Assembly: GCA_016699795.1 (NCBI GenBank)
Contig: CP065011.1
Span: 819,449-883,448, forward strand
From: Candidatus Moraniibacteriota bacterium
GTDB lineage: Bacteria; Patescibacteriota; Minisyncoccia; Moranbacterales; GCA-2747515
Direction: 5' to 3'
DNA length: 64,000 nt
How positions within the stretch are numbered: position 1 is the stretch's first letter; the number at the start of each line of letters is the position of its first letter. The position numbers were made by a program, and so were the translations under genes. Positions 26,965 through 63,159 of this stretch are shown in pieces. Below the pieces are notes generated by a model, which saw only the letters and a program-made list of their open reading frames with translations, ran no database searches and was not told the origin of the DNA.

Positions 26965-27060
26965 ATAGAGCAGGACTCGGTTACGAATATATTTTTTAAA
27001 AATATTTCTCGACTCCGACTTGCGGTTTCGCATAAACGCGAAATGTCGCTTCGTCTTTCT
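26965..27060 (-). repeat. tRNA-trailer repeat A: partial copy of the tRNA-Arg(TCG) T-arm plus a ~65-nt conserved unit
   Basis: GCAGGACTCG is shared with the tRNA-Arg(TCG) T-arm. The segment then aligns at ~65-70 percent with the unit at 27351-27440 (cggtYacgaRtat...ctcgacYccRcYtSggg...tcgca). Confidence 0.45.
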
Positions 27061-27118
27061 TGCTCTGACTCAAATAAAACCCTTTATTTGCTACGCAAAA
27101 CAAGTACTTTGTTCATTG

Positions 27119-27191
27119 TGTCCCCGGCAGGACTCGAACCTACAACCTTCTGGTCCGAAGCCAGACACTCTATCCATTGAGCTACGGGGAC
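27119..27191 (-). tRNA. tRNA-Arg (anticodon TCG)
   Basis: The reverse complement folds as acceptor GTCCCCG/CGGGGAC, anticodon stem TCTGG/CCAGA with loop CTTCGGA, and T-loop TTCGAGT. Confidence 0.8.
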
Positions 27192-27212
27192 TTTTTCTTC
27201 TTTGTGAAGAAG

Positions 27213-27286
27213 GGGGCGACTACTGGGAATTGAACCCAGATTCTTGGGACCACAACCCAATGTCCTACCATTGAACGATAGCCGCC
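27213..27286 (-). tRNA. tRNA-His (anticodon GTG) with encoded G-1
   Basis: The reverse complement folds as G-1 + GCGGCTA/TAGTCGC, anticodon stem TTGGG/CCCAA with loop TTGTGGT, and T-loop TTCAATT. G-1 pairs with discriminator C. Confidence 0.75.
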
Positions 27287-27350
27287 ATGTATCGTAAATT
27301 GTATCAACTTTTCTCGCTTATTGCGAGATGAGAACCCGCAATAACTTTTT

Positions 27351-27440
27351 TGTGCCCTCGGAGGGAATCGGTCACGAGTATTTTTCTAAAAGAAAAATCT
27401 CTCGACCCCACCTCGGGGTGCTTCGCACATCACTCCGGTT
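27351..27440 (-). repeat. tRNA-trailer repeat B: exact 20-nt copy of the tRNA-Arg(TCT) 3' end plus the ~65-nt conserved unit
   Basis: TGTGCCCTCGGAGGGAATCG at 27351-27370 is identical to 27495-27514, the T-arm 3' half plus acceptor 3' strand of tRNA-Arg(TCT). The sequence then diverges into the shared trailer unit. Confidence 0.5.
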
Positions 27441-27496
27441 TTCTCATCCCTCATGCACGTAAAGCAGTTTACGTGCTCTCGTGCACAAGAAACTTG

Positions 27497-27568
27497 TGCC
27501 CTCGGAGGGAATCGAACCCCCATCAAGAGCTTAGAAGACTCCTGCTCTATCCATTGAGCTACAAGGGC
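27497..27568 (-). tRNA. tRNA-Arg (anticodon TCT)
   Basis: The reverse complement folds as acceptor GCCCTTG/CGAGGGC, anticodon stem GGAGT/GCTCT (two GU pairs) with loop CTTCTAA, and T-loop TTCGATT. Confidence 0.8.
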
Positions 27569-27601
27569 TTTAAAAAAACAGTTTTCATCAATTCAACTAT
27601 G

Positions 27602-27674
27602 TGCGCGCAGAGGGATTCGAACCCCCGACCGTTTGGTTAAGAGCCAACTGCTCTACCAGCTGAGCTATGCGCGC
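27602..27674 (-). tRNA. tRNA-Lys (anticodon CTT)
   Basis: The reverse complement folds as acceptor GCGCGCA/TGCGCGC, anticodon loop CTCTTAA, and T-stem GGGGG/CCCTC with loop TTCGAAT. Confidence 0.8.
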
Positions 27675-27955
27675 AAAGTGTGCTATTGTGGGATGCTTTT
27701 TGTAAAAAAACGATACGAGATGAGCGTACCAGAAAAGTAAAAATGAGTCAATAAAAAATAGTTGACTGTATAAATTGATCTGTGCTAGTATGAAAACCTC
27801 ATTTGAGAAGGGGAGACCGAAAGGTCTTTTTTGATTGTCTTTAGGGGGTTTATTTGTAAGAACAATGTATGTGTAATCTTCTTCAAGAAGGAAGCGCTGA
27901 AAGTTTTGTTTCCTATAAAAATAACCTAAAAAATAATAAAAAGAAGAAGAAAGGA

Positions 27956-53380: not shown

Positions 53381-53490
53381 GACTGATGAATCTTCGAGGA
53401 GTGGAGACTTGGTCCGCCTTTGGCGGAAATCTCGCGGAGACGGAAAAAGAGTCCTTGCGAGGAGTCCGCGAAGTGACGAAGCAATTCAGA
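53381..53490 (+). repeat. GC-rich structured repeat element, left copy, upstream of the AAA-ATPase gene
   Basis: Sub-blocks CGACTGATGAATC, GGTCCGCCTTTGGCGGAAATCTCGCGGAGACGG (two palindromes) and GTCCTTGCGAG...GCGAAGCAATTCAGA. Each has a counterpart at 54884-54980, but in a different order. Confidence 0.5.
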
Positions 53491-53653
53491 GTATATTCGA
53501 GAAAAAAAATAGAGGGTATATATTTCAAAAAAATAAAGTCTTCACCGTATAATCCTGGATTGCCACGCAGAGCCTCGAAACGACGGAGGGAAAGATCTTG
53601 CAAACAGAAAAAAGAGAGAAAAAAAGAGGATATTTGCTTATTTTGTTAATTTT

Positions 53654-53701
53654 GTGTATTGTAAATACATAAATTAATGTAATAATTTGTATTATAAATA
53701 C
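53654..53701 (+). promoter_or_regulatory. tandem palindromic operator-like sites upstream of the AAA-ATPase gene
   Basis: TGTATTGTAAATACA (53654-53668) and TGTATTATAAATACA (53687-53701) are 15-bp palindromes repeated in tandem, ending 9 bp before the ATG. Confidence 0.4.
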
Positions 53702-53709
53702 ATAAATAT

Positions 53710-54861
53710 ATGATAAAGCGATTTTTTAGCCCTCTCGAGCCATTATTATGTCCGAATAAAGTATTGGTACTGTATGGACCACGAAGAGTTGGAAAAACAA
53801 CACTTCTCAAGGAACTTCTTGAAAAAACTTCTTTAAAGTATCGTTTTGATAGTGGTGAAAATTTACGAGTTCAAGAACTTTTTGCTTCTGGTGATTTTGA
53901 AAAAATGAAAGAATATGTTGGTGATAATGAGCTTATTGCTATTGATGAGGCTCAGCAAATACCTTCTATCGGAATGGGATTAAAAATCATAGTTGATCAG
54001 ATTCCTAGGATAAAGATTATTGTGACAGGTTCTTCGAGTTTTGAATTGTTTAATCAAATTGGAGAGCCTTTAGTGGGGAGAAAAAACACTCTTACTCTTT
54101 ATCCATTCGCTCAAGTTGAACTTAAAAATGAATTCAATATTTTTGATCTTAAAGAAAGACTTGAAGAATTCTTGATTTATGGTTCCTATCCAGATGTTTT
54201 TCTTGCTCCGAGTAAACAGGAAAAAATAATATTTCTCAATGATATTGTAGATTCTTATTTATTAAAGGATATTCTTGCTTTAGATGGCGTAAAAAAATCT
54301 CGAGTCTTAGTTGATCTTGTTACATTACTTGCTCTTCAAATTGGGAGCGAAGTTTCTCTTAACGAACTCGCACAACAACTCAATGCTAATGTGCGGACTA
54401 TCGAAAAATACCTCGATATACTAGAAAAGGGCTTTGTTATTACTTCACTTTCGACCTTAAAACGTAACCTCCGAAATGAAGTAAGGGGAAAGCGAAAATA
54501 TTATTTTCTTGATCTTGGTGTTCGTAATGCATTACTTTCACAATTTAATGAAATTGCTTTACGAAATGATGTAGGAGCTCTTTGGGAAAATTTTCTCTTT
54601 ATTGAACGATTGAAAAAATGTTCCTATCAGAAAATTTTTGCCAATCGATACTTTTGGAGAACGTACAATCAAAAAGAAATTGATCTTGTAGAAGAACGTG
54701 GAGGTGAGTTTTTTGCCTACGAATTCAAATGGAGTATGGACAAAAAACAACCACCAAAAGAATTTATAGAAGAATATACGCAATCTCATTTTGAAAATAT
54801 TACTCGAGAAAAGTATTGGGACTTTATCGCGGGAGAAAATGAAGACAAAGAGGGTGTATAA
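53710..54861 (+). CDS. AAA-family ATPase (AAA_14 / DUF4143-type ATP-binding protein)
   Basis: Walker A LVLYGPRRVGKTT, Walker B LIAIDEAQ, and the C-terminal DUF4143-like region; 383 aa. Confidence 0.65.
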   Translation: MIKRFFSPLEPLLCPNKVLVLYGPRRVGKTTLLKELLEKTSLKYRFDSGENLRVQELFASGDFEKMKEYVGDNELIAIDEAQQIPSIGMGLKIIVDQIPRIKIIVTGSSSFELFNQIGEPLVGRKNTLTLYPFAQVELKNEFNIFDLKERLEEFLIYGSYPDVFLAPSKQEKIIFLNDIVDSYLLKDILALDGVKKSRVLVDLVTLLALQIGSEVSLNELAQQLNANVRTIEKYLDILEKGFVITSLSTLKRNLRNEVRGKRKYYFLDLGVRNALLSQFNEIALRNDVGALWENFLFIERLKKCSYQKIFANRYFWRTYNQKEIDLVEERGGEFFAYEFKWSMDKKQPPKEFIEEYTQSHFENITREKYWDFIAGENEDKEGV

Positions 54862-54883
54862 GAGAGGATTTCCCCGTTCTTTC

Positions 54884-54980
54884 GAGTGATGATGTTTTGT
54901 TTTTTCTGTCTTTGCGAGCGTAGCGAAGCAATCCAGAAATTCGGATGGACCGCCACGTTGCGGACTCCTCGCGGAATCGG
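54884..54980 (+). repeat. GC-rich structured repeat element, right copy, between the ATPase gene and the DGR target gene
   Basis: CGAGTGATGATG, GTCTTTGCGAGCGTAGCGAAGCAATCCAGA and GATGGACCGCCACGTTGCGGACTCCTCGCGGAATCGG match the left copy's sub-blocks at about 70 percent identity. Confidence 0.5.
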
Positions 54981-55083
54981 AGATCCAGCATTTCACAAAA
55001 AACACAAAACATCCTATACTAAAAAAAGAAAAAAGATTATTTCACAAACAAAAAAAAGAACATTTATTATACAATAAAATAGT

Positions 55084-56229
55084 ATGATGTTTACGAAAAA
55101 AAATACTCCCCCCAAACTACAAAGAACTCTTGATGGAATACGAAAAGAAAAAAACAATACTTATTCTATAAAAGAAAAAAAAGAAATCTCTCTTTCTTCT
55201 TTTTTTTCTTTCCTCTCCAAAAAAAGAAAACTCACTTCTACTTTCCTCTTAACCATTCTTATCTTAGGAGGAGTCTCTTTTTTCTTTTCAAAAAATATAA
55301 AAGGAGCAACGTATGGATGGATTCAAAGTAGTTGGATAGGAGGAGTAACAGTAAATACTGCTACACATACCAATAATCAAGAAAACTGGACGGAGTTTGC
55401 TTCGAAAGATACAAACATTGATACAACATCTACTCCTGGAGAAGTAAAAATTGTGGGAGTAAATAATAGCTGGATACAAACAAGTGATGCGGATTTCAAT
55501 GCGGGAACGAATGACGGTATTGTGGTGAGTGGAGGAGCTGTTTCTTCTCTCCGCCCTCCTGGAGCAAGTTGTACAAGTTATACGCAGTGTACGAGTTATT
55601 CTTGTACTGGGAATCTTTGTGGATCGGATAATGGCTGTGGCGTGGCTCAGGATGCGGATGGCAATCGTTATGGATCTATCTGGGTGGGGACACAATGCTG
55701 GCTCAATAGAAATCTTAATGTAGGAACGATGCTTGCAAGTGCAAGTACCCTTCCTACCAATAATGGAACGATAGAAAAATGGTGCTATGATAATAATAGT
55801 GCGAACTGTATTTCAGAAGGGGGTTTGTATCATTGGAGCGAAGCAATGAGTTGGGTAACGACAGAGGGAGCTCAAGGCATCTGCCCCACAGGTTGGCACA
55901 TACCAACGGATGCAGAACAAAACACGCTTGATCAGTACCTCAAAGACACGCTTGCAACCTGCAATGCTTCACGTTCAGGAGCGTATGATTGTATCAGTGC
56001 AGGAACCAAGCTCAAAGTAAATGGAATATCAAATATGAATATACCGCTCGCTGGTAACCGTCTTACCTCCGGCACGTTTGTCGTTCGAGGGGCGTACACG
56101 TACCTTTGGTCTTCGTCAGTTTCAGGCTCGGATGCTTGGTATCGTAATTTGAATTCTGGGTCTGATGGTGTCGGTCGCGGTCCTTATTCCCAGGCTTACG
56201 GGTTTAGTGTCCGTTGTCTCAAGAACTGA
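55084..56229 (+). CDS. DGR target protein: membrane-anchored, C-type-lectin-fold variable protein (FISUMP-like ligand-binding domain)
   Basis: N-terminal transmembrane helix, a Thr/Ser-rich linker, a DADGNRYGSIWVGTQCWLNRNLNVG block resembling the FISUMP domain, and a C-terminal VR ending ...AYGFSVRCLKN as in known DGR targets. Confidence 0.75.
   Translation: MMFTKKNTPPKLQRTLDGIRKEKNNTYSIKEKKEISLSSFFSFLSKKRKLTSTFLLTILILGGVSFFFSKNIKGATYGWIQSSWIGGVTVNTATHTNNQENWTEFASKDTNIDTTSTPGEVKIVGVNNSWIQTSDADFNAGTNDGIVVSGGAVSSLRPPGASCTSYTQCTSYSCTGNLCGSDNGCGVAQDADGNRYGSIWVGTQCWLNRNLNVGTMLASASTLPTNNGTIEKWCYDNNSANCISEGGLYHWSEAMSWVTTEGAQGICPTGWHIPTDAEQNTLDQYLKDTLATCNASRSGAYDCISAGTKLKVNGISNMNIPLAGNRLTSGTFVVRGAYTYLWSSSVSGSDAWYRNLNSGSDGVGRGPYSQAYGFSVRCLKN
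56041..56229 (+). repeat. DGR variable region (VR)
   Basis: The last 63 codons of the target gene. They align to the TR with substitutions confined to TR-adenine positions, plus one A/C difference. Confidence 0.85.
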
Positions 56230-56279
56230 TATATTTTCTTTTATTCTTTTTTTATTTTATTCTTTTTCCGAAAAAAAAT

Positions 56280-56642
56280 ATGGCAATGCATCATAATCTC
56301 CCAGTATATCGAGCGAGCTATGATTTTCTTAGAGATTTTTTTCTTTTTTCCAAACATATTCCAAAAGAGTATAAATATACCGTTGGGGAGAAAATAAAAA
56401 ATGAAGCCGTTGAAATGACTCTTTGTATTGTGGAAGCAAATGCATCCAGAGAAGGAAGAAAAGAAAAAATTCAAAAAGGAATCCTTCATTTAGAACGAAT
56501 ACGGCTTCTAATGAGGCTTTTAAAAGATACTAAAAATATAAGTTTAAAATCTTTTGCTCAATTATCTTTGGATCTAGAGACAGCCAGTAGACAACTTACA
56601 GGATGGAAGAATTATCAACAAAATGGCCAGAGTCGCGAATAG
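56280..56642 (+). CDS. avd: Avd-like accessory variability determinant (four-helix-bundle protein)
   Basis: ~120-aa basic helical protein between VR and TR (MAMHHNLPVYRASYDFLRDFF...VGEKIKNEAVEMTLCIVEANASREGRKEK), in the position and of the size and character of bAvd. The start is taken at the Met at 56280. Confidence 0.55.
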   Translation: MAMHHNLPVYRASYDFLRDFFLFSKHIPKEYKYTVGEKIKNEAVEMTLCIVEANASREGRKEKIQKGILHLERIRLLMRLLKDTKNISLKSFAQLSLDLETASRQLTGWKNYQQNGQSRE

Positions 56643-56782
56643 TCAAGGCTTTCGCGAGTGCGCCAAAATCAGTTCCATAGCCCTCTCGTTTTTCGGGAAA
56701 TATAAAAATGAGGAGTAGGAATAAGGTATTCCATTGGACAAAAGCGTGTAGCATTTGTTCAAGAGTAATAGTGGCTATTTGA

Positions 56783-56974
56783 CATAACGCTCGCTGGTAA
56801 CCGTAATACCTCCGGCACGTTTGACAATCGAGGGACGAACACGAACCTTTGGTCTTCGTCAGTTTCAGGCTCGAATGCTTGGAATCGTAATTTGAATTCT
56901 GGGTCTGCTGGTGTCAATCGCAATCCTAATTCCCAGGCTAACGGGTTTAGTGTCCGTTGTCTCAAGAACTGATA
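56783..56974 (+). repeat. DGR template repeat (TR)
   Basis: Noncoding ~190-nt copy of the VR with A at every variable position and AAC/AAT codons in the VR frame; immediately upstream of the RT. Confidence 0.85.
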
Positions 56975-56985
56975 CGCGATGATGT

Positions 56986-58035
56986 ATGAAAAAAGAGGAT
57001 GTGGAGATTTATATTTACATCCTCGTCTCGCGTTTTTTTGAATCCCAATATTTTTCTATGAATAAACAAGAACTTTTTGAAAAAATTCTTTCTGCCTACT
57101 ATGACGCTCGAAAGAATAAAAGAAAAAGTCACGACGCAATTTTTTTTGAGATGAATTATGAAAAAGAATGTATGCGATTGTGTGAAGAGCTTATGGATAG
57201 AACGTATAGAATTTCACCCAGTTCTTGTTTTATTGTGAACAGACCAGTAAAAAGAGAAATTTTTGCCGGAGCTTTTCGTGATAGGGTTATTCATCATTTT
57301 CTTTTTAATGCTGTAAATCCCTGGTGTGAAACAATGTTTATCCGTGATACGTATAGTTGTCGAAAAGGAAAGGGAACCTCCTATGCCGTATCTCGTGCAA
57401 TACATTTTCTTCGCTCTGTTTCAAAAAATTATTCTTCGGATGCTTGGGTAATACGACTAGATATAGCGGGGTATTTTATGTCTATTCGAAAGGATATTTT
57501 ATTTTCTATCTTTGTAGATCTTTTAGAACGTCATCGAAACGCTATGTTATATGACTTTGATCTTCTTTTTTGGTTAGGACAAAAAATTATTGATAATAAT
57601 CCAATTTTTTCTGCTAAAGTGAAAGGAAAGAAAGAGGATTGGGTTGGGTTGCCGAGAAATAAAAGTCTTTATTGGGCTGAAAAAGGTTGCGGATTACCTA
57701 TCGGAAATTTAACAAGTCAACTTTTTGCAAATGTATATTTGAGTGATTTTGATTACTATGTTCGATCTATAGTTTCTCGTCTTGGGGGATGTTATGGGCG
57801 ATATGTAGATGATATTCTTATTTTTATACCTAAGAATAAGAATATTCGGACAGTTGTGCAATTACTCGAACAGCATCTTTTTAAAAAAAGACGGCTTTAT
57901 ATACATCCGAAAAAAATTTTCACACAACCGTATAAAAACGGTTTTTCTTTTGTTGGTAGATATATCCTTCCTTATAGAATATATATAAAACGAAAAACAA
58001 AACAGAATATGAAAAAAATTTTATTAAGAAGATGA
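56986..58035 (+). CDS. DGR reverse transcriptase
   Basis: RT motifs FRDRVIHHFLF (1/2), GLPIGNLTSQLFANVYLSDFD (B/4) and YGRYVDDILIF (C/5, YxDD); 349 aa. Confidence 0.85.
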   Translation: MKKEDVEIYIYILVSRFFESQYFSMNKQELFEKILSAYYDARKNKRKSHDAIFFEMNYEKECMRLCEELMDRTYRISPSSCFIVNRPVKREIFAGAFRDRVIHHFLFNAVNPWCETMFIRDTYSCRKGKGTSYAVSRAIHFLRSVSKNYSSDAWVIRLDIAGYFMSIRKDILFSIFVDLLERHRNAMLYDFDLLFWLGQKIIDNNPIFSAKVKGKKEDWVGLPRNKSLYWAEKGCGLPIGNLTSQLFANVYLSDFDYYVRSIVSRLGGCYGRYVDDILIFIPKNKNIRTVVQLLEQHLFKKRRLYIHPKKIFTQPYKNGFSFVGRYILPYRIYIKRKTKQNMKKILLRR

Positions 58036-58317
58036 ATACAATTTCAAAACGAAAGACAAAATAATAGAACTTGTGAAATTCATTCATTTCATGCTTGTTG
58101 GATATCGTATGAAGGTATATTTGAATATTGTAATGCTTATAAAGTAAGAGAAAGATGGACTTGTGTTTATAAAAAGAAGAAGAAAGAATTGGAATTGATA
58201 GAAATGAATACTATAAGAGTGTAACTGATGCAAGTCATTGGGTTCTTATTAGAGGGAAATAAAGAAGATTTTTTGAAAATTTTTTTGAAAATAAAAACTA
58301 TGGTATACTTGGAGGGT

Positions 58318-61300
58318 ATGAAATTTCTCAAACAAACAGCACAAAAAAGGAAAATACAGTTTTTTGTAGGAATGTTTTTTGTGGTGCTTGTGAATGTTTT
58401 TTCTGTGGGAGAGGCGAAGGCATATACTTTTGATACTAACTGGATATCGCCGATCAGATCGTATCCAACAGCGGTTGGTTTTGGCACTCTTTCTTGGACG
58501 GAAACTCCTGCTGTGGATGCAAGTGCTTTGATGTATATTCGTGCAGGGAATACAGCTATTCCTGATGGTTCATGGACGGATTGGACGGCTATTTCCAATG
58601 GAGGGAATCTTGCTGTCTTGGGGGTCAAAAAATATGTGCAACAAAAAATTAATTTCTTTGGAAATGGCTTAGCTGTTCCTGTTATTTCCGACATTACTTT
58701 ATCTACGTATTCTGGAGAGCTTTTTTCTTCGTCTTATGATACTAAAGCTTCTCTCAATCAAATCCTTTCTTTTCATTGGAATGCATTAGAATCTGGCTGG
58801 GGGAATACGGCGTTTCAGATACAAGTTTCTCGAGACAAAACAACATGGAATTCATGGTGTAGTGGAATGGAAAATCCAAGCGGAAATTGTGATACTTCGG
58901 TGTGGTTTGAAAATGATTCTGGAACGAATGAATCGACGGTTGTGATGGATAATGCACAGTATCGTTATATTCGATATAGACTTTTTTTTACAGGAAATAC
59001 TGAAAATACGGCTTCCATAGGGGATGTTCGTATAGAGTATGATAAAAAAATATACCAAACACATTTTACCAGCCCCGTCAAAGACTTTCTTTCCCCCTCT
59101 CTTTTCCAAACGCTTTCTTGGAATGAAACTCCGGGACTTGAAGCAGCACTCACTATGAATGTCCGATCAGGAAATACTCCAACACCTGACGGAACATGGT
59201 CTTCATGGATTCCCATTTCCAATGGGGGAGATATATCCCAATTTACAGGCAATCGCTATCTTCAGTATGAAGCAACGTTTTCTTCGTATGATGTAGATAC
59301 ATCAGTTATTCTTTCCGATGTAACAGTTGCTTACTCCCAATACCCCGTAGGCTCCTATCTTCTCACCTCTTCCCCCTACAACTCCACCGATACTGCGAAC
59401 CTCCTCTCTAAAATAGAATGGAATGAAACCATTCCTCCTCAAACAAATATACGTTTCCAACTCCGAACCGCACCAGATCTAACAGGATCTCCTGATTGGA
59501 ACAATGGTTCCAAATGGTGTGGACCTACAGATTGCGCCCTCACAACAAATAGCAATGACTTTGCTTCGAGTTTTTACGAAACAACACCACAAGGAGAATC
59601 TACCAATCCCATACATCTAGAAGGAAACAATGATCAATGGTTACAGTATGCTACCTGGCTTTCTAATGAAAACACCGGAGCCACTCCAACACTTTCTCAA
59701 GTAACGCTTACCTATCTGGTAAACGCTTCTCCTATGATTCAAAATGTAACTGCTACTCCCAATACAGATAAAACAGTAGATATCACCTACGAAGTCAAAG
59801 ATCCTGATACAACTACAGGAACCAATACTCCAGGATTTATTACTCCGAGCTTTTCCTATTGGGATGGAGATTCATGGGAAAGCATTGCTTCTAATACTCT
59901 AGCTCCCGAAGATGTACAAAACAAAGCAGTGAATCAAGATTCGTACACAACACACACAGCTACCTGGACTCCTTCACTTTCTCACTCAAATCTCTATCTT
60001 TCTGGATCAGCCAAGATTCGTGTCACTATAGGGGACAATGAAGGAGCAAATAATACAGCAAATGCAGAATCCAATACCTTTACATTGGATACAAAGATTC
60101 CAGAGAACCCTTCTCTTTCTATAGACGCATCCACTCAAGATCTTCTTGATACCAACACCACATCACTCCTTACTCTTTCTGTATCTGAAGACTCTCAACG
60201 ATTCATGAAAGTTTCTCTTTTTCCTGATCTCTCTGATACTGATTGGGAACCCCATACTCTTAACAAAACTATCAAACTCCAAAGTGATCCTGATACCGTC
60301 TACGCACAATTCAAAGATCAATACGGAAATGAAACACAAATCATTGCTACTGAGAGTATAGAGACTCCTTCTCATATCATGACACAAGATACTTCTAATC
60401 TTTATCTTACTCCTCCTGAATATCGAGTCTTTCTTAGTTTCAAACCATCAGAAATCTCTTCTCAAGAATTCTCTCGTTATGAACTCTTCAGAAAAGAAGA
60501 AGGGGGTTCTTATGGTACTGACCCTCATGATATACGAACAGTTCCTCAAGAAAACTTTCTTACTGATTCAGGAGGAGGTGTTGATCCTAATACTCTCTAT
60601 ACGTATAAAGTACGAACCAAAGATACACTCGGAAATATTTCTTTCTTTTCTCAAGAAGTAACTGCCAAAGCAAATGGCATCCAAGATGCAGGAGAGGGTG
60701 GTGGTGGAGTTGATGATAGTTCTCCTTCTATTGCCAACGTAACCGTAGAATCTAAAGACACCACAACCGTAACTATCACATGGGAAACAGATGAACTCTC
60801 TGACTCTCGTGTAGAATATGCAACCACTCCCAACACCTATACCAAACAAACAGGAGTCTCTACCTATGCTGACACCCAAGCACAATCAGGACTTCATAGA
60901 GTCACTCTTACCAACCTCACACCAAACACTCCCTACTTCTTTAGAGTTGCCTCTACTGATCCTCAAGGCAATACCGGAGTCAATGACAATAATGGCAATG
61001 GATATGAAGTCACAACGAATCCTGGACCTTCTATCAGTGGTGTAGCGGTATCAAGTGCTTCTAACACACAAGCAACCATATTCTGGAATACGAATGTCCC
61101 TGCAGACTCTGTACTCCATTACAGTGAAAACAAGAATGGATCTCTTATCGATCCTATCACTCTCTCCGGATCAAGTGTTCTTACAAAAAATCATCAAGTA
61201 ACCTTAGATGCTCTTACTCAAGGAACCACCTACTATTTCTACGTTACCTCCACCGACTCACAAGGAAACATTGCCAATGACAATAATGGAGGAAACTATT

Positions 61301-63159
61301 TTCAATTCTCTACAACACTCGACGAAACACCTCCTACCATAACGAATCTTCAAACATCTCTTATCTCAAATGACAAAGCAGTTATTACAGCAAACACAGA
61401 TGAAGAAGCATCCTTCCTCCTTCAGTACAGAAAAAAAGGAAGCCTTACCTTCACACAAACAGAACAAGGAACAACATACGATAGATCTCACTACAGGGTA
61501 CTCGATACTCTTACTCCTGATACAGAGTATGAATATCAAGTGAGTGTTAAAGATATCAATCAAAACGAATCACAGAGTGATATACAAACAATGAAAACAA
61601 CCTTAGATCCAGAATACAATCATGCACCTCTTTCAAAGATTCATACTATCAGTGATCCTCCTAAAGTACTCACTGATCAAAAAGCAGTCATAACCTTCCA
61701 GACGGATCAAGCAGCAAACTGCATCCTTGAATATGGAACCCAATCAAGAAACTACCAAGAAGTTCCTCAAACAGAAGCGACAGGAATCTATGACACACTC
61801 CATTCCCTGCATCTTGGAGGACTCATCTTTAACACAACCTACTTCTACAAACTTCTTTGTGAAGATAATCTTGGAACCCTCATAGAGAGTGAAGAAAAAA
61901 GCTTCACAACAAAACTCAAACAAGTAGACAGTGGAAGTGAACAAGCAGAATCTACTCCTCCCTCTATCTCAGGAGTCAAAGTCAAAGACATTACAGGAGA
62001 GAGTGCAGTGGTGAGTTGGGAGACGGATGAAGTTTCAAACTCACAGGTGAGGTATGGGACGACGGAGGAGATGGAAGAATTAAGAGGAAATGCTTTGATA
62101 AATACAGACATCGCTAAATTCTCAACAGCCCATTCTGTAACCTTGCGAGGACTCATTCCTTCAACAAAGTATTTTTTCAGTGCAAGCTCATACGACACCG
62201 CCGGAAACATAGGCACCTCCTCCCAACAAACCTTCCAAACGCAATCTCCTTCTTCCATCTCTTCCATTAAAGCTTCTTCCAAACAAATAGGGGAAACAAC
62301 TATCACATGGAAAACTTCCACTCCCACTACCTCTATTGTTGAATATGGAAACACAGAAAACTATGGACAAACAAGAAAAAGTGAAGAACTCAAAAAAGAT
62401 CATGAAATTATCATAAACAATCTTTTAGAAAACTCTACCTACCACTTCCGAGTAAAAGGAGAAGATGAATCAAAAAATCTCTTCTCTTCTTCCGACTCTA
62501 CCTTTGAACCAAAGTCTCCACCACAAATCAAAGAAATCAAGATAGAAGTTCTTTCAGACAGAGAAGCAAAAGTAAACTTCCTTACTGATACTCTTACCGA
62601 CTCTCTTGTAACCTACAAAAACAAAAACAAAGAAGAAGATCAAAAGAGTGAAGGAAATCCCTCCCTCCTCCAAACTCACTCCCTCACCCTCAAAGAACTC
62701 ACTCCTGGAGAAAACTACGTTCTTACTGTACGAGTCAGAGATGATATGGGAAATGAAACTCTCTCTGATGAGATAGAATTCACTATGCAAAAAGATGAAA
62801 CTTCTCCTACAGTAGAAAGAGTCTCTACCGACTCCGCTCTTTCACAAAACGGAAAAGTACAAATGATTATTAACTGGCAAACAGATGAAGATGCTTCTTC
62901 CTCCCTCATCTACAAAGAAGGAAGAGCAGGAGAAGAAAAAACAGTGAATGTAAGTTCTTCCCCAACAAAGAATCACATCATTGTACTCACCTCTTGGAAA
63001 CCAGGAACTCTCTACTCTTACAAAGTCATAGTAAAAGATCTGAGTGGGAATGAAACCATAACCAAAGACTACATCACCCTTACACCACAAACAAAAGAAT
63101 CTGTTGTAGAACTCATCATAAAGAACTTCAAAGAAATCTTTGCTTGGACGGGAGGGTAG
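58318..63159 (+). CDS. giant secreted surface protein with about eight tandem fibronectin type III-like repeats
   Basis: Signal peptide MKFLKQT...VGEAKA. The C-terminal ~800 aa consist of ~100-aa units of the form ...SI(S/A)xVxV....TxAxIxWxTDE.SxSxVxYG....Y.....L.......L.P.T.YYFRV. 1643 aa from the track start. Confidence 0.5.
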   Translation: MKFLKQTAQKRKIQFFVGMFFVVLVNVFSVGEAKAYTFDTNWISPIRSYPTAVGFGTLSWTETPAVDASALMYIRAGNTAIPDGSWTDWTAISNGGNLAVLGVKKYVQQKINFFGNGLAVPVISDITLSTYSGELFSSSYDTKASLNQILSFHWNALESGWGNTAFQIQVSRDKTTWNSWCSGMENPSGNCDTSVWFENDSGTNESTVVMDNAQYRYIRYRLFFTGNTENTASIGDVRIEYDKKIYQTHFTSPVKDFLSPSLFQTLSWNETPGLEAALTMNVRSGNTPTPDGTWSSWIPISNGGDISQFTGNRYLQYEATFSSYDVDTSVILSDVTVAYSQYPVGSYLLTSSPYNSTDTANLLSKIEWNETIPPQTNIRFQLRTAPDLTGSPDWNNGSKWCGPTDCALTTNSNDFASSFYETTPQGESTNPIHLEGNNDQWLQYATWLSNENTGATPTLSQVTLTYLVNASPMIQNVTATPNTDKTVDITYEVKDPDTTTGTNTPGFITPSFSYWDGDSWESIASNTLAPEDVQNKAVNQDSYTTHTATWTPSLSHSNLYLSGSAKIRVTIGDNEGANNTANAESNTFTLDTKIPENPSLSIDASTQDLLDTNTTSLLTLSVSEDSQRFMKVSLFPDLSDTDWEPHTLNKTIKLQSDPDTVYAQFKDQYGNETQIIATESIETPSHIMTQDTSNLYLTPPEYRVFLSFKPSEISSQEFSRYELFRKEEGGSYGTDPHDIRTVPQENFLTDSGGGVDPNTLYTYKVRTKDTLGNISFFSQEVTAKANGIQDAGEGGGGVDDSSPSIANVTVESKDTTTVTITWETDELSDSRVEYATTPNTYTKQTGVSTYADTQAQSGLHRVTLTNLTPNTPYFFRVASTDPQGNTGVNDNNGNGYEVTTNPGPSISGVAVSSASNTQATIFWNTNVPADSVLHYSENKNGSLIDPITLSGSSVLTKNHQVTLDALTQGTTYYFYVTSTDSQGNIANDNNGGNYFQFSTTLDETPPTITNLQTSLISNDKAVITANTDEEASFLLQYRKKGSLTFTQTEQGTTYDRSHYRVLDTLTPDTEYEYQVSVKDINQNESQSDIQTMKTTLDPEYNHAPLSKIHTISDPPKVLTDQKAVITFQTDQAANCILEYGTQSRNYQEVPQTEATGIYDTLHSLHLGGLIFNTTYFYKLLCEDNLGTLIESEEKSFTTKLKQVDSGSEQAESTPPSISGVKVKDITGESAVVSWETDEVSNSQVRYGTTEEMEELRGNALINTDIAKFSTAHSVTLRGLIPSTKYFFSASSYDTAGNIGTSSQQTFQTQSPSSISSIKASSKQIGETTITWKTSTPTTSIVEYGNTENYGQTRKSEELKKDHEIIINNLLENSTYHFRVKGEDESKNLFSSSDSTFEPKSPPQIKEIKIEVLSDREAKVNFLTDTLTDSLVTYKNKNKEEDQKSEGNPSLLQTHSLTLKELTPGENYVLTVRVRDDMGNETLSDEIEFTMQKDETSPTVERVSTDSALSQNGKVQMIINWQTDEDASSSLIYKEGRAGEEKTVNVSSSPTKNHIIVLTSWKPGTLYSYKVIVKDLSGNETITKDYITLTPQTKESVVELIIKNFKEIFAWTGG

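Follow-up and report, generated by a model that had tools for sequence, protein, structure and literature searches.

Diversity-generating retroelements (DGRs) are found both in phages and in cellular genomes. In the DGR of Bordetella phage BPP-1 the order of the components is mtd-avd-TR-brt: the C-terminus of a C-type-lectin-fold protein contains the variable repeat (VR), mutagenesis is adenine-specific, an Avd-family protein is encoded and the template repeat (TR) is placed between structured RNAs. Cellular DGR clades of the Candidate Phyla Radiation (CPR, or Patescibacteria) were reportedly recognised by Paul and co-workers in 2017. The DGRs of Legionella pneumophila and the related 'category d' systems, with targets of the DUF1566, DUF823 or Fib_succ_major families (Wu et al. 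2018, PMC5758913), diversify the C-terminus of surface-anchored proteins, and cellular clades have been catalogued in the CPR/Patescibacteria and in the FCB (Fibrobacteres-Chlorobi-Bacteroidetes) group (Roux et al. 2021, PMC8144416), so that DGRs with Fib_succ_major/DUF1566 targets and CPR DGRs are both well described (PMC5758913, PMC8144416). This work deals with a DGR located in a stretch of 64,000 nucleotides, hereafter the window, from the chromosome of an uncultured Candidatus Moraniibacteriota bacterium, a member of the CPR with a genome of 1.19 Mb (contig CP065011.1, positions 819,449 to 883,448). The locus is a genuine DGR, an ordinary member of a well-known class, which was most likely recently disabled or depends at best on rare read-through of a UGA codon in its reverse transcriptase (RT) gene.

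From the listing of open reading frames (ORFs) and the sequence read between 54800 and 58400, the components follow one another along the + strand as target gene (with the VR), avd, a structured RNA similar to the Rfam motif RT-7, TR, stem-loop and RT gene. The locus thus resembles the BPP-1 system in the order target(VR)-avd-TR-RT, in its adenine-specific mutagenesis, in its Avd-family protein, in the VR at the C-terminus of a C-type-lectin-fold protein and in the TR lying between structured RNAs. Unlike BPP-1, it is a cellular element carried on a CPR chromosome and not on a phage, and its target is a membrane-anchored protein of the FISUMP/CLec2 type instead of Mtd. The resemblance to the Legionella and 'category d' DGRs covers the target family, the CLec2 class of the VR (with its ...W-SSS...GFSVRC-LK end), the surface-anchored protein with a diversified C-terminus and the general architecture; on the other hand, the anchor is here an N-terminal transmembrane helix in a monoderm CPR bacterium, whereas the Legionella protein is an outer-membrane lipoprotein. 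With the CPR and FCB cellular clades the locus shares the host group, the encoding by the cell itself and RT homologues with their own TR/VR pairs. Nothing categorical separates it from them, and this copy is set apart by a nonsense codon in the RT and by a sister strain from which the RT has been deleted. An adenine-specific TR/VR pair, an RT of the DGR clade, an Avd protein, a C-terminal VR in a C-type-lectin fold and homing between strains are all observed at the locus. What it lacks is an intact RT; besides, it has neither distinguishable IMH and IMH* sequences (IMH, initiation of mutagenic homing) nor an inverted repeat after the VR, neither of which is universal among DGRs (PMC5758913).

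The VR (56041-56231, + strand) and the noncoding TR (56784-56974, + strand) were compared by an offset scan, which gave a single strong register: at an offset of 743 the two copies match without gaps over 191 nt, with 18 mismatches (90.6% identity). The TR contains 45 A, 45 C, 46 G and 55 T, and its adenines carry 17 of the 18 mismatches (hypergeometric P for at least 17 of 18 on A, about 2e-11); the sole non-adenine mismatch is C56908 in the TR against A56165 in the VR. All the changes at adenines fall on codon positions 1 or 2. Thirteen codons are changed, for which the TR reads AAY (AAC or AAT) in 10 cases and ACG, ACG and GAC in the other three, and four AAY codons are unaltered. In the frame of the VR, the TR presents 38 mutable adenines in 24 codons and 13 AAY codons; none of the substitutions possible at TR adenines leads to a stop codon, and in theory around 1e20 protein variants can arise. 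A first-pass annotation of the locus, made from the sequence alone, had proposed this pair with about 90% identity; the pair stands, with the TR start then given (56783) being one base off and the lengths quoted for the two copies (189 and 192) disagreeing with each other. Its list of substitutions, with 17 of 18 mismatches at TR adenines, agrees exactly with the recomputed alignment, a tabulation that it had itself proposed, and its single non-adenine difference is the one mentioned above. Its statement that the TR carries AAC or AAT at exactly the changed sites is right for 10 of the 13 codons and slightly overstated for the remaining three.

The last 34 nt of the two copies (56198-56231 in the VR, 56941-56974 in the TR) are identical, with none of their 9 adenines altered. 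This invariant tail runs past the stop codon of the target gene (TGA, 56227-56229) and sets the 3' limit of mutagenesis, so the mutagenised part of the VR is 56041-56197. The VR and the TR diverge only beyond 56231 and 56974, respectively. The IMH-like tail of the VR and the IMH*-like tail of the TR therefore do not differ, a situation known in some DGRs (PMC5758913). The tail had been described at first pass as IMH-like and GC-rich: the identity of the 3' ends is borne out over the 34 nt, and with 44% G+C the tail is rich in these bases only in relative terms. No GC-rich inverted repeat, hairpin or cruciform was found after the VR, and no stable structure is predicted in 56195-56300 (z -0.39). 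An inverted repeat of this kind follows the VR in only 34% of the catalogued DGRs and is not strictly defining (PMC5758913). The identity of IMH with IMH* and the missing repeat are nevertheless points of difference from BPP-1, and the Legionella system needs its hairpin/cruciform after the VR for efficient homing, whereas the present locus has none and its RT is interrupted. Searches within the genome covered the 64-kb window, in which adenine-tolerant matching of the TR on both strands revealed no VR besides the known one; neither JGI metagenome contigs nor GTDB representative genomes contained a match to the 28-nt invariant core of TR and VR.

Past activity of the element is recorded in a sister strain (L002; ENA contig ERZ27290317 k141_192581), which was found via a near-identical protein of 118 aa in the Avd cluster and is 94.6% identical to the window over 55285-56937. 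The TR of this strain is identical to that of the window at 154 of 154 positions, whereas divergence in the flanks is 1.9-7.9%. Between the two VRs there are differences at 14 of the 45 TR-adenine sites and at 2 of the 146 other sites (Fisher 2e-8), and the mismatches between the VR and the TR of L002 itself are all at adenines (10 of 10). Since the differences between the VRs are concentrated on TR adenines despite an identical TR, mutagenic homing did occur in this lineage. The mismatch at 56165 is private to the VR of the window (the VR of L002 holds the C of the template) and is either an ordinary point mutation or a rare misincorporation.

The sister strain and a more distant relative also document the loss of the cassette. 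After nt 154 of its TR, L002 continues into unrelated sequence, which has 91% identity with what follows the homologous target downstream in the distant relative (L002 4551-4687; L083 7854-7990), and therefore L002 has lost the 3' end of the TR and the RT. In L083, whose target is 66% identical, there is no avd, TR or RT beside the target homologue. The VR-equivalent of L083 differs from the TR of the window at 24 of the 45 A sites and at 43 of the 146 other sites (P 0.004), in agreement with an earlier diversification from a related template. Taken together, the window, L002 and L083 show the decay of a DGR at three stages within one Moraniibacteriota group.

The genes that flank the cassette differ among these three genomes (an ABC transporter or a redoxin upstream, a LamG-like or an fn3-rich giant protein downstream), and consequently the neighbourhood has been rearranged. 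A further sign of rearrangement is the position of four tRNA genes (Arg-TCG, His, Arg-TCT and Lys; minus strand, 26973-27677), which have counterparts with 78-92% identity in L083 (3022-3241): the distance from this cluster to the DGR target or its homologue is about 3.5 kb in L083 and about 28 kb in the window.

The target gene (55084-56229, + strand; QQS61037.1, IPN70_04085) encodes a protein of 381 aa composed of a membrane-anchor helix at the N-terminus (residues 51-67, nt 55234-55284), a low-confidence linker and a FISUMP domain at residues ~192-381. The matches to the FISUMP/Fib_succ_major families pass their cutoffs (PF09603, 87.9 vs 33.9 in Pfam; TIGR02145, 91.3 vs 41.65 in NCBIfam). 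The C-terminal domain has a C-type-lectin fold, the nearest fold being that of Treponema TvpA, and the VR is therefore situated as expected for a DGR, at the 3' end of an ORF encoding a variation-tolerant fold of this type. The protein would have a role in surface adhesion. That mutagenic homing by a DGR diversifies a surface ligand-binding protein had already been proposed at first pass, and the proposal is now strongly backed by the substitution spectrum, the family matches, the C-type-lectin fold, the relatives of the RT and the comparison between strains.

Two paralogues of the target are encoded elsewhere in the genome, P0136 (IPN70_05320) and P0146 (IPN70_03575). Their N-terminal ~105 aa, which comprise the anchor and the linker, are identical to those of the target (compared with 55084-55400 of the window), and their C-terminal domains differ, being lectin-like in look and ending in ...VRCLKN or ...VRCVRGQ. 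This pattern suggests recent gene conversion or module shuffling, and both paralogues are possibly other present or former DGR targets.

Downstream of the target, avd (56280-56642, + strand; QQS61038.1) encodes a protein of 120 aa of the four-helix-bundle type, named 'four helix bundle protein' by NCBI. It matches Pfam bAvd (PF22296) with 50.3 bits against a cutoff of 40, and NCBIfam DivGenRetAVD with 45.5 bits, under the equivalog cutoff of 80. This profile search, also proposed at first pass, confirms the Avd-like protein noticed then between VR and TR.

The RT ORF as present (57058-58035, + strand; QQS61039.1) contains all the motifs reported in the first-pass annotation, FRDRV, GLPIGN (here GLPIGNLTSQ, 57691-57720) and YVDD (57802-57813). 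The start assumed there, 12 bp past the TR, is unlikely: a conserved stem-loop occupies the interval, and the conserved RT starts at ATG 57058, 83 nt after the TR, which is both the NCBI start and the point where the homologues begin to align. The upstream ATG 56986 was rejected as a start, as it would add 24 residues without counterpart in the homologues and would overlap the stem-loop. The protein matches Pfam RVT_1, and its best match in the PDB is 8ub7_A (E 1.8e-21), followed by Drt2 (3e-7) and group II RTs (~1e-5). The entry 8ub7_A is an unnamed 'Reverse transcriptase' of 328 aa with nine PDB entries; we take it to be bRT, the RT of the Bordetella phage, on account of its length and of the nine entries, which would correspond to the nine complexes in the study of the Bordetella RT-Avd complex cited below for the template RNA, a paper that prints no PDB codes. 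With this assumption, the closest solved RT is that of BPP-1. R74, I181 and the IGNLTSQ box (motif IGxxxSQ) of 8ub7_A are kept in the alignment with the window RT; R74 and I181 are presumably determinants of adenine mutagenesis in bRT. The window RT differs from that of BPP-1 in having an insertion of ~50 aa and a truncation by a stop codon.

The nearest homologues of the RT (45-54% identity) come from Moraniibacteriota, other Patescibacteria and metagenome-assembled genomes (MAGs) of Bacteroidota. A scan of GTDB representative genomes with the RT family alignment, in which GLPIGNLTSQ is invariant, gave 80 loci of relatives; 71 of these loci carry the catalytic-region motif, and their hosts belong to Moraniibacteriota, other Patescibacteria, Bacteroidota and several further phyla. 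By self-comparison, 56 of the 80 loci have a TR/VR pair with adenine bias; most of the others are short contigs with little upstream sequence. In 46 loci the distance from the end of the TR to the RT start downstream is at most ~120 nt, or the two overlap. The motif, the PDB match and the TR/VR pairs of the relatives indicate that the RT belongs to the DGR clade. Some of the related loci have unusual arrangements: in one (L047, 3627-4920) there are three RT-7-like elements and two TRs in tandem, both matching one VR; in another (L043, 6522-8914) one TR on the opposite strand serves as counterpart of three VRs; and in a third (L069) two VRs flank the RT on either side.

Two RNA elements are new to the description of the locus: a covarying RT-7-like RNA, which directly adjoins the TR on its 5' side, and on the 3' side a stem-loop typical of the family. 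Weinberg et al. (2017) described the motifs RT-1 to RT-19 near RT genes, of which only RT-10 was tied to a DGR and RT-7 was left without an assigned function (PMC5737381). The RT-7-like RNA of the window (56626-56785, + strand) overlaps the last 17 nt of avd, ends at the first TR base and contains a P1 hairpin (56626-56663) and a closing helix (56677-56683 with 56771-56778). Its match to Rfam RF03028 (RT-7) spans the full model, with the 5' GCCAGAG...GUCAAGGC...GAG.G.GC and 3' AGUGGYUAU boxes and an adjacent RT gene as points of likeness; unlike accepted members, it scores 44.4 bits (E 3e-8) and does not reach the gathering score of 116.8, and the element is here placed consistently between avd and TR of DGRs. 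A match to RT-7 ending at the TR start is also present in 4 of 6 relatives, which score 33-60 bits. A covariance model of our own, which covers only the 5' 70 nt of the element, gave 54 matches, spread over about 50 loci and without exception on the strand of the RT; 38 of them lie 108-281 nt (median 158) upstream of a TR start. In the P1 helix 95.4% of the cells are paired (at most 49% in slid controls), with compensatory changes at 12 of 12 pairs across 52 distinct sequences, in an alignment that was fitted to the covariance model itself. This covariation indicates that the element behaves as a divergent RT-7, without formal membership of the family.

On the other side of the TR there is an extended stem-loop (56974-57039, + strand), in which the outer stem ACGCGA (56974-56979) pairs with UCGCGU (57028-57033) and encloses an inner hairpin (56995-57024); a run of 7 T follows at 57033-57039. 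The predicted fold has -32.3 kcal/mol (z -2.2). Hairpins of -10 kcal/mol or lower within 75 nt occur after the TR in 34 of 47 related DGRs (median -17 kcal/mol) and after the VR in 17 of 47 (-7.6), and in the former the stem sequences vary from locus to locus at a conserved position. A simple terminator scan did not call the stem-loop, which is either a terminator-like element, an RT/Avd-binding element or both. The interval between TR and RT is thus a spacer of 83 nt with one stem-loop, unlike the 140-nt Sp (Rfam RT-10) of BPP-1, and the 5' element differs from that of BPP-1 in being RT-7-like. Taken together, the 5' RNA and the 3' stem-loop enclose the template RNA in conserved structure, in keeping with the need of the Bordetella RT-Avd complex for structured RNA on either side of the TR (10.1101/2023.10.23.563531). 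A duplex of the 3' end of the TR with the sequence that follows the stem-loop, similar to the template-primer duplex that TR and Sp form in Bordetella, was evaluated with RNAduplex against shuffles at 47 loci and rejected (median z -0.04, 1 of 47 below -2).

The element is probably no longer fully working because an in-frame stop cuts the RT short. The original frame of the gene, 57058-58224, has 388 codons and is interrupted by a TGA at 58033-58035, so that the NCBI protein (P0001/QQS61039.1), which has no pseudogene flag, has 325 aa from 57058, whereas homologues have 370-400 aa. The remnant beyond the stop (58036-58224, + strand; 62 codons in the same frame) ends with TAA at 58222-58224, 3 nt before the next gene. 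Its translation ('...KKILLRR*IQFQNERQNNRTCEIHSFHACWISYEGIFEYCNAYKVRERW...', the asterisk marking the TGA) aligns with the conserved C-terminus of full-length homologues and includes the W-SY-G-F-C-AY-RE motif, a conserved feature of the thumb's end; the SYxG motif of this segment is at least 90% conserved in the RT family. When the remnant is added, the alignment with 8ub7_A extends to residue 319 of 328 and its score rises from 80.1 to 86 bits. The ~62 lost residues align to ~287-319 of 8ub7_A, which is the end of the thumb if 8ub7 is presumed to be bRT. A profile of 21 full-length homologues, built without the query, matches the remnant at positions 328-378 of 394 with 22.3 bits, compared with 8.1 bits for the best of 200 shuffles and no match in the other two frames. 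The thumb subdomain of bRT contacts the template-primer duplex and the 'Thumb Ring' RNA (10.1101/2023.10.23.563531), and the activity of the RT has presumably been lost with this segment. The first-pass annotation had called the DGR 'complete'; this does not hold, as it took the truncated ORF for the whole gene and missed the interruption and the ~62 conserved residues lost with it.

The stop is very probably real and specific to this lineage, because TGA is an ordinary stop in this genome, the relatives are not cut and another assembly carries the same codon. In the window TGA ends 7 of 45 long ORFs, including the target gene at the exact end of its domain, and none lies inside the neighbouring gene of 1643 codons. 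The RT ORF ends 114 aa past GLPIGNLTSQ, whereas 65 of the 71 motif-bearing relatives end 145-237 aa past it, and the window gene is the only one among the 71 that is cut at this point with a homologous in-frame continuation. Over 56945-59197, which takes in the stop codon, a Logan assembly of SRR11674012 matches the window with 100% identity. Genetic code 25, in which UGA is read as Gly, was considered and rejected on the same TGA usage and because the TGA of the RT, which falls in a variable linker rich in K and R, is off any conserved Gly. In-frame TGA codons are also present in the RTs of three other loci (L030 5616+, L073 5640+ and L077 5625+), from one Gracilibacteria MAG and two genomes labelled just Patescibacteria or bacterium; in L073 and L077 the TGA stands at a conserved Gly (..NLGL.LHP..), which is consistent with code 25 in those hosts.

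Several other explanations of the locus have to be weighed. If it were not a DGR, a group II intron, retron or defence-type RT would lie beside a duplicated gene fragment, and the RT does show similarity to group II, Drt2, retron and UG-type RTs in NCBIfam and PADLOC, below threshold and as any RT would. Those scores are far under the curated NCBIfam cutoffs (group_II_RT_mat 79.8 vs 300, Drt2 53 vs 390, Retron_St85 49.3 vs 235, Drt3a 42.9 vs 200), the PADLOC scan does not discriminate (its best match is a generic RT model), and in 54000-58500 Rfam gave no match to group II intron RNA at E<=1 and found no retron RNA either. Besides, simple duplication cannot explain the adenine-only spectrum, the Avd protein, the AAY-rich TR or the TR/VR pairs of the relatives, and this explanation is effectively refuted. 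An error of sequencing or consensus would leave a true gene with an intact RT of 388 codons; the genome is metagenome-assembled and one base change (e.g. AGA, CGA or GGA to TGA) would be enough, but the lesion is a substitution instead of the homopolymer indel typical of long-read errors, and the stop recurs in the Logan assembly, with the reservation that both assemblies might share reads. We judge such an error to be quite improbable.

A more serious alternative, which is still unlikely, is a fully functional DGR in which low-level and possibly regulatory read-through of the UGA at codon 326 yields an RT of 387 aa, the 325-aa form suffices or another DGR RT of the genome acts in trans. The 62 codons past the stop are intact and still conserved; the TR has stayed perfectly conserved in two strains with diverged flanks; the VR is heavily diversified, with 17 changes among 45 TR adenines (38 in the mutable part); and the two paralogues with CLec2-like C-termini hint at other DGR activity in the same genome. 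Against this, none of the relatives among the 71 that use code 11 has an in-frame stop at this or any position, and this UGA therefore does not represent a conserved site of recoding; ordinary genes end at TGA in this genome, no suppressor tRNA was found within the window, and the SYxG motif is lost from the 325-aa form. The sister strain has moreover lost its RT independently, from which it follows that the cassette is dispensable in the lineage. The reading preferred here, that of a recently disabled DGR, has its own weak points. The loss of RT activity is presumptive, and the 325-aa protein retains the N-terminal extension, the fingers, the palm and the first part of the thumb, with a length similar to that of bRT. 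UGA is the leakiest of the stop codons, and its context here is UGA-A. The 62 orphaned codons carry no further lesion, which means either a recent mutation or selection that still acts on the region. Activity in trans could come from a second DGR RT in another part of the 1.19-Mb genome, of which 64 kb were examined, and the locus shows neither a difference between IMH and IMH* nor a hairpin after the VR by which donor and recipient might be told apart. As a speculation, to which we give little credence, the leaky UGA might work as a translational governor that throttles the thumb-complete RT, restricting hypermutation of the lectin to rare cells or to conditions that raise read-through; under the same speculation, and separately from the governor, RT-7 might serve a large clade of CPR and Bacteroidota DGRs as the scaffold on the 5' side of their template RNA.

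The anatomy of the cassette, the adenine-specific spectrum, the diversification seen between strains and a stop codon followed by intact homology are all observed; the mechanism is proposed from what is known of the Bordetella phage system. An RNA comprising the 5' structured element, the TR and the 3' stem-loop would be bound by the RT-Avd complex and reverse-transcribed, random nucleotides being placed opposite template adenines. At the 3' end of the target gene the resulting cDNA would then replace the VR, and up to 13 AAY codons and about 10 others would be re-randomised on the ligand-binding face of the membrane-anchored FISUMP protein. With the nonsense codon in the RT, the VR would remain frozen in its last state.

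Regarding the surroundings of the cassette, a giant surface protein of 1643 aa is encoded directly downstream (58228-63159), with at least 7 repeats of the purple-acid-phosphatase-N/fibronectin-III type and an N-terminal hydrophobic segment; the start codon of its gene is 3 nt past the end of the original RT frame. In the AT-rich spacer just upstream of the target there is a GC-rich island of about 123 nt (54891-55013) with 19-nt inverted repeats at its edges (54891-54909 and 54995-55013), which looks like a mobile element of the MITE (miniature inverted-repeat transposable element) or REP (repetitive extragenic palindromic) kind. An inverted partial copy lies about 1.4 kb upstream (53457-53478 and 53551-53593), and several copies or fragments are found in L002 (2369-2752), apparently in frame inside the 5' part of a longer target gene (441 aa). 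Directly upstream of the AAA-ATPase/DUF4143 gene (53710-54861), a 33-nt AT-rich unit is repeated twice in tandem with 82% identity (53647-53712).

The element adds no new biology on the workings of DGRs, and its value is that of a clean natural example. A practical lesson is that calling a DGR 'complete' by motifs only can mask a truncated RT, as can a GenBank entry for an RT of 325 aa without a pseudogene flag. Two strains with an identical template and different VRs are direct evidence of diversification, and the decay of a DGR can be followed from a nonsense codon in the RT (window), through the deletion of the RT and the TR 3' end (sister strain), to the absence of the cassette (distant relative). 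A likely role also emerges for the orphan Rfam motif RT-7, that of the structured RNA which immediately adjoins the TR on its 5' side in a large DGR clade, a placement which parallels the upstream RNA segment needed by the Bordetella RT-Avd complex. As for the organism itself, a CPR bacterium of the episymbiont type has diversified a membrane-anchored protein with a lectin fold, plausibly for attachment.

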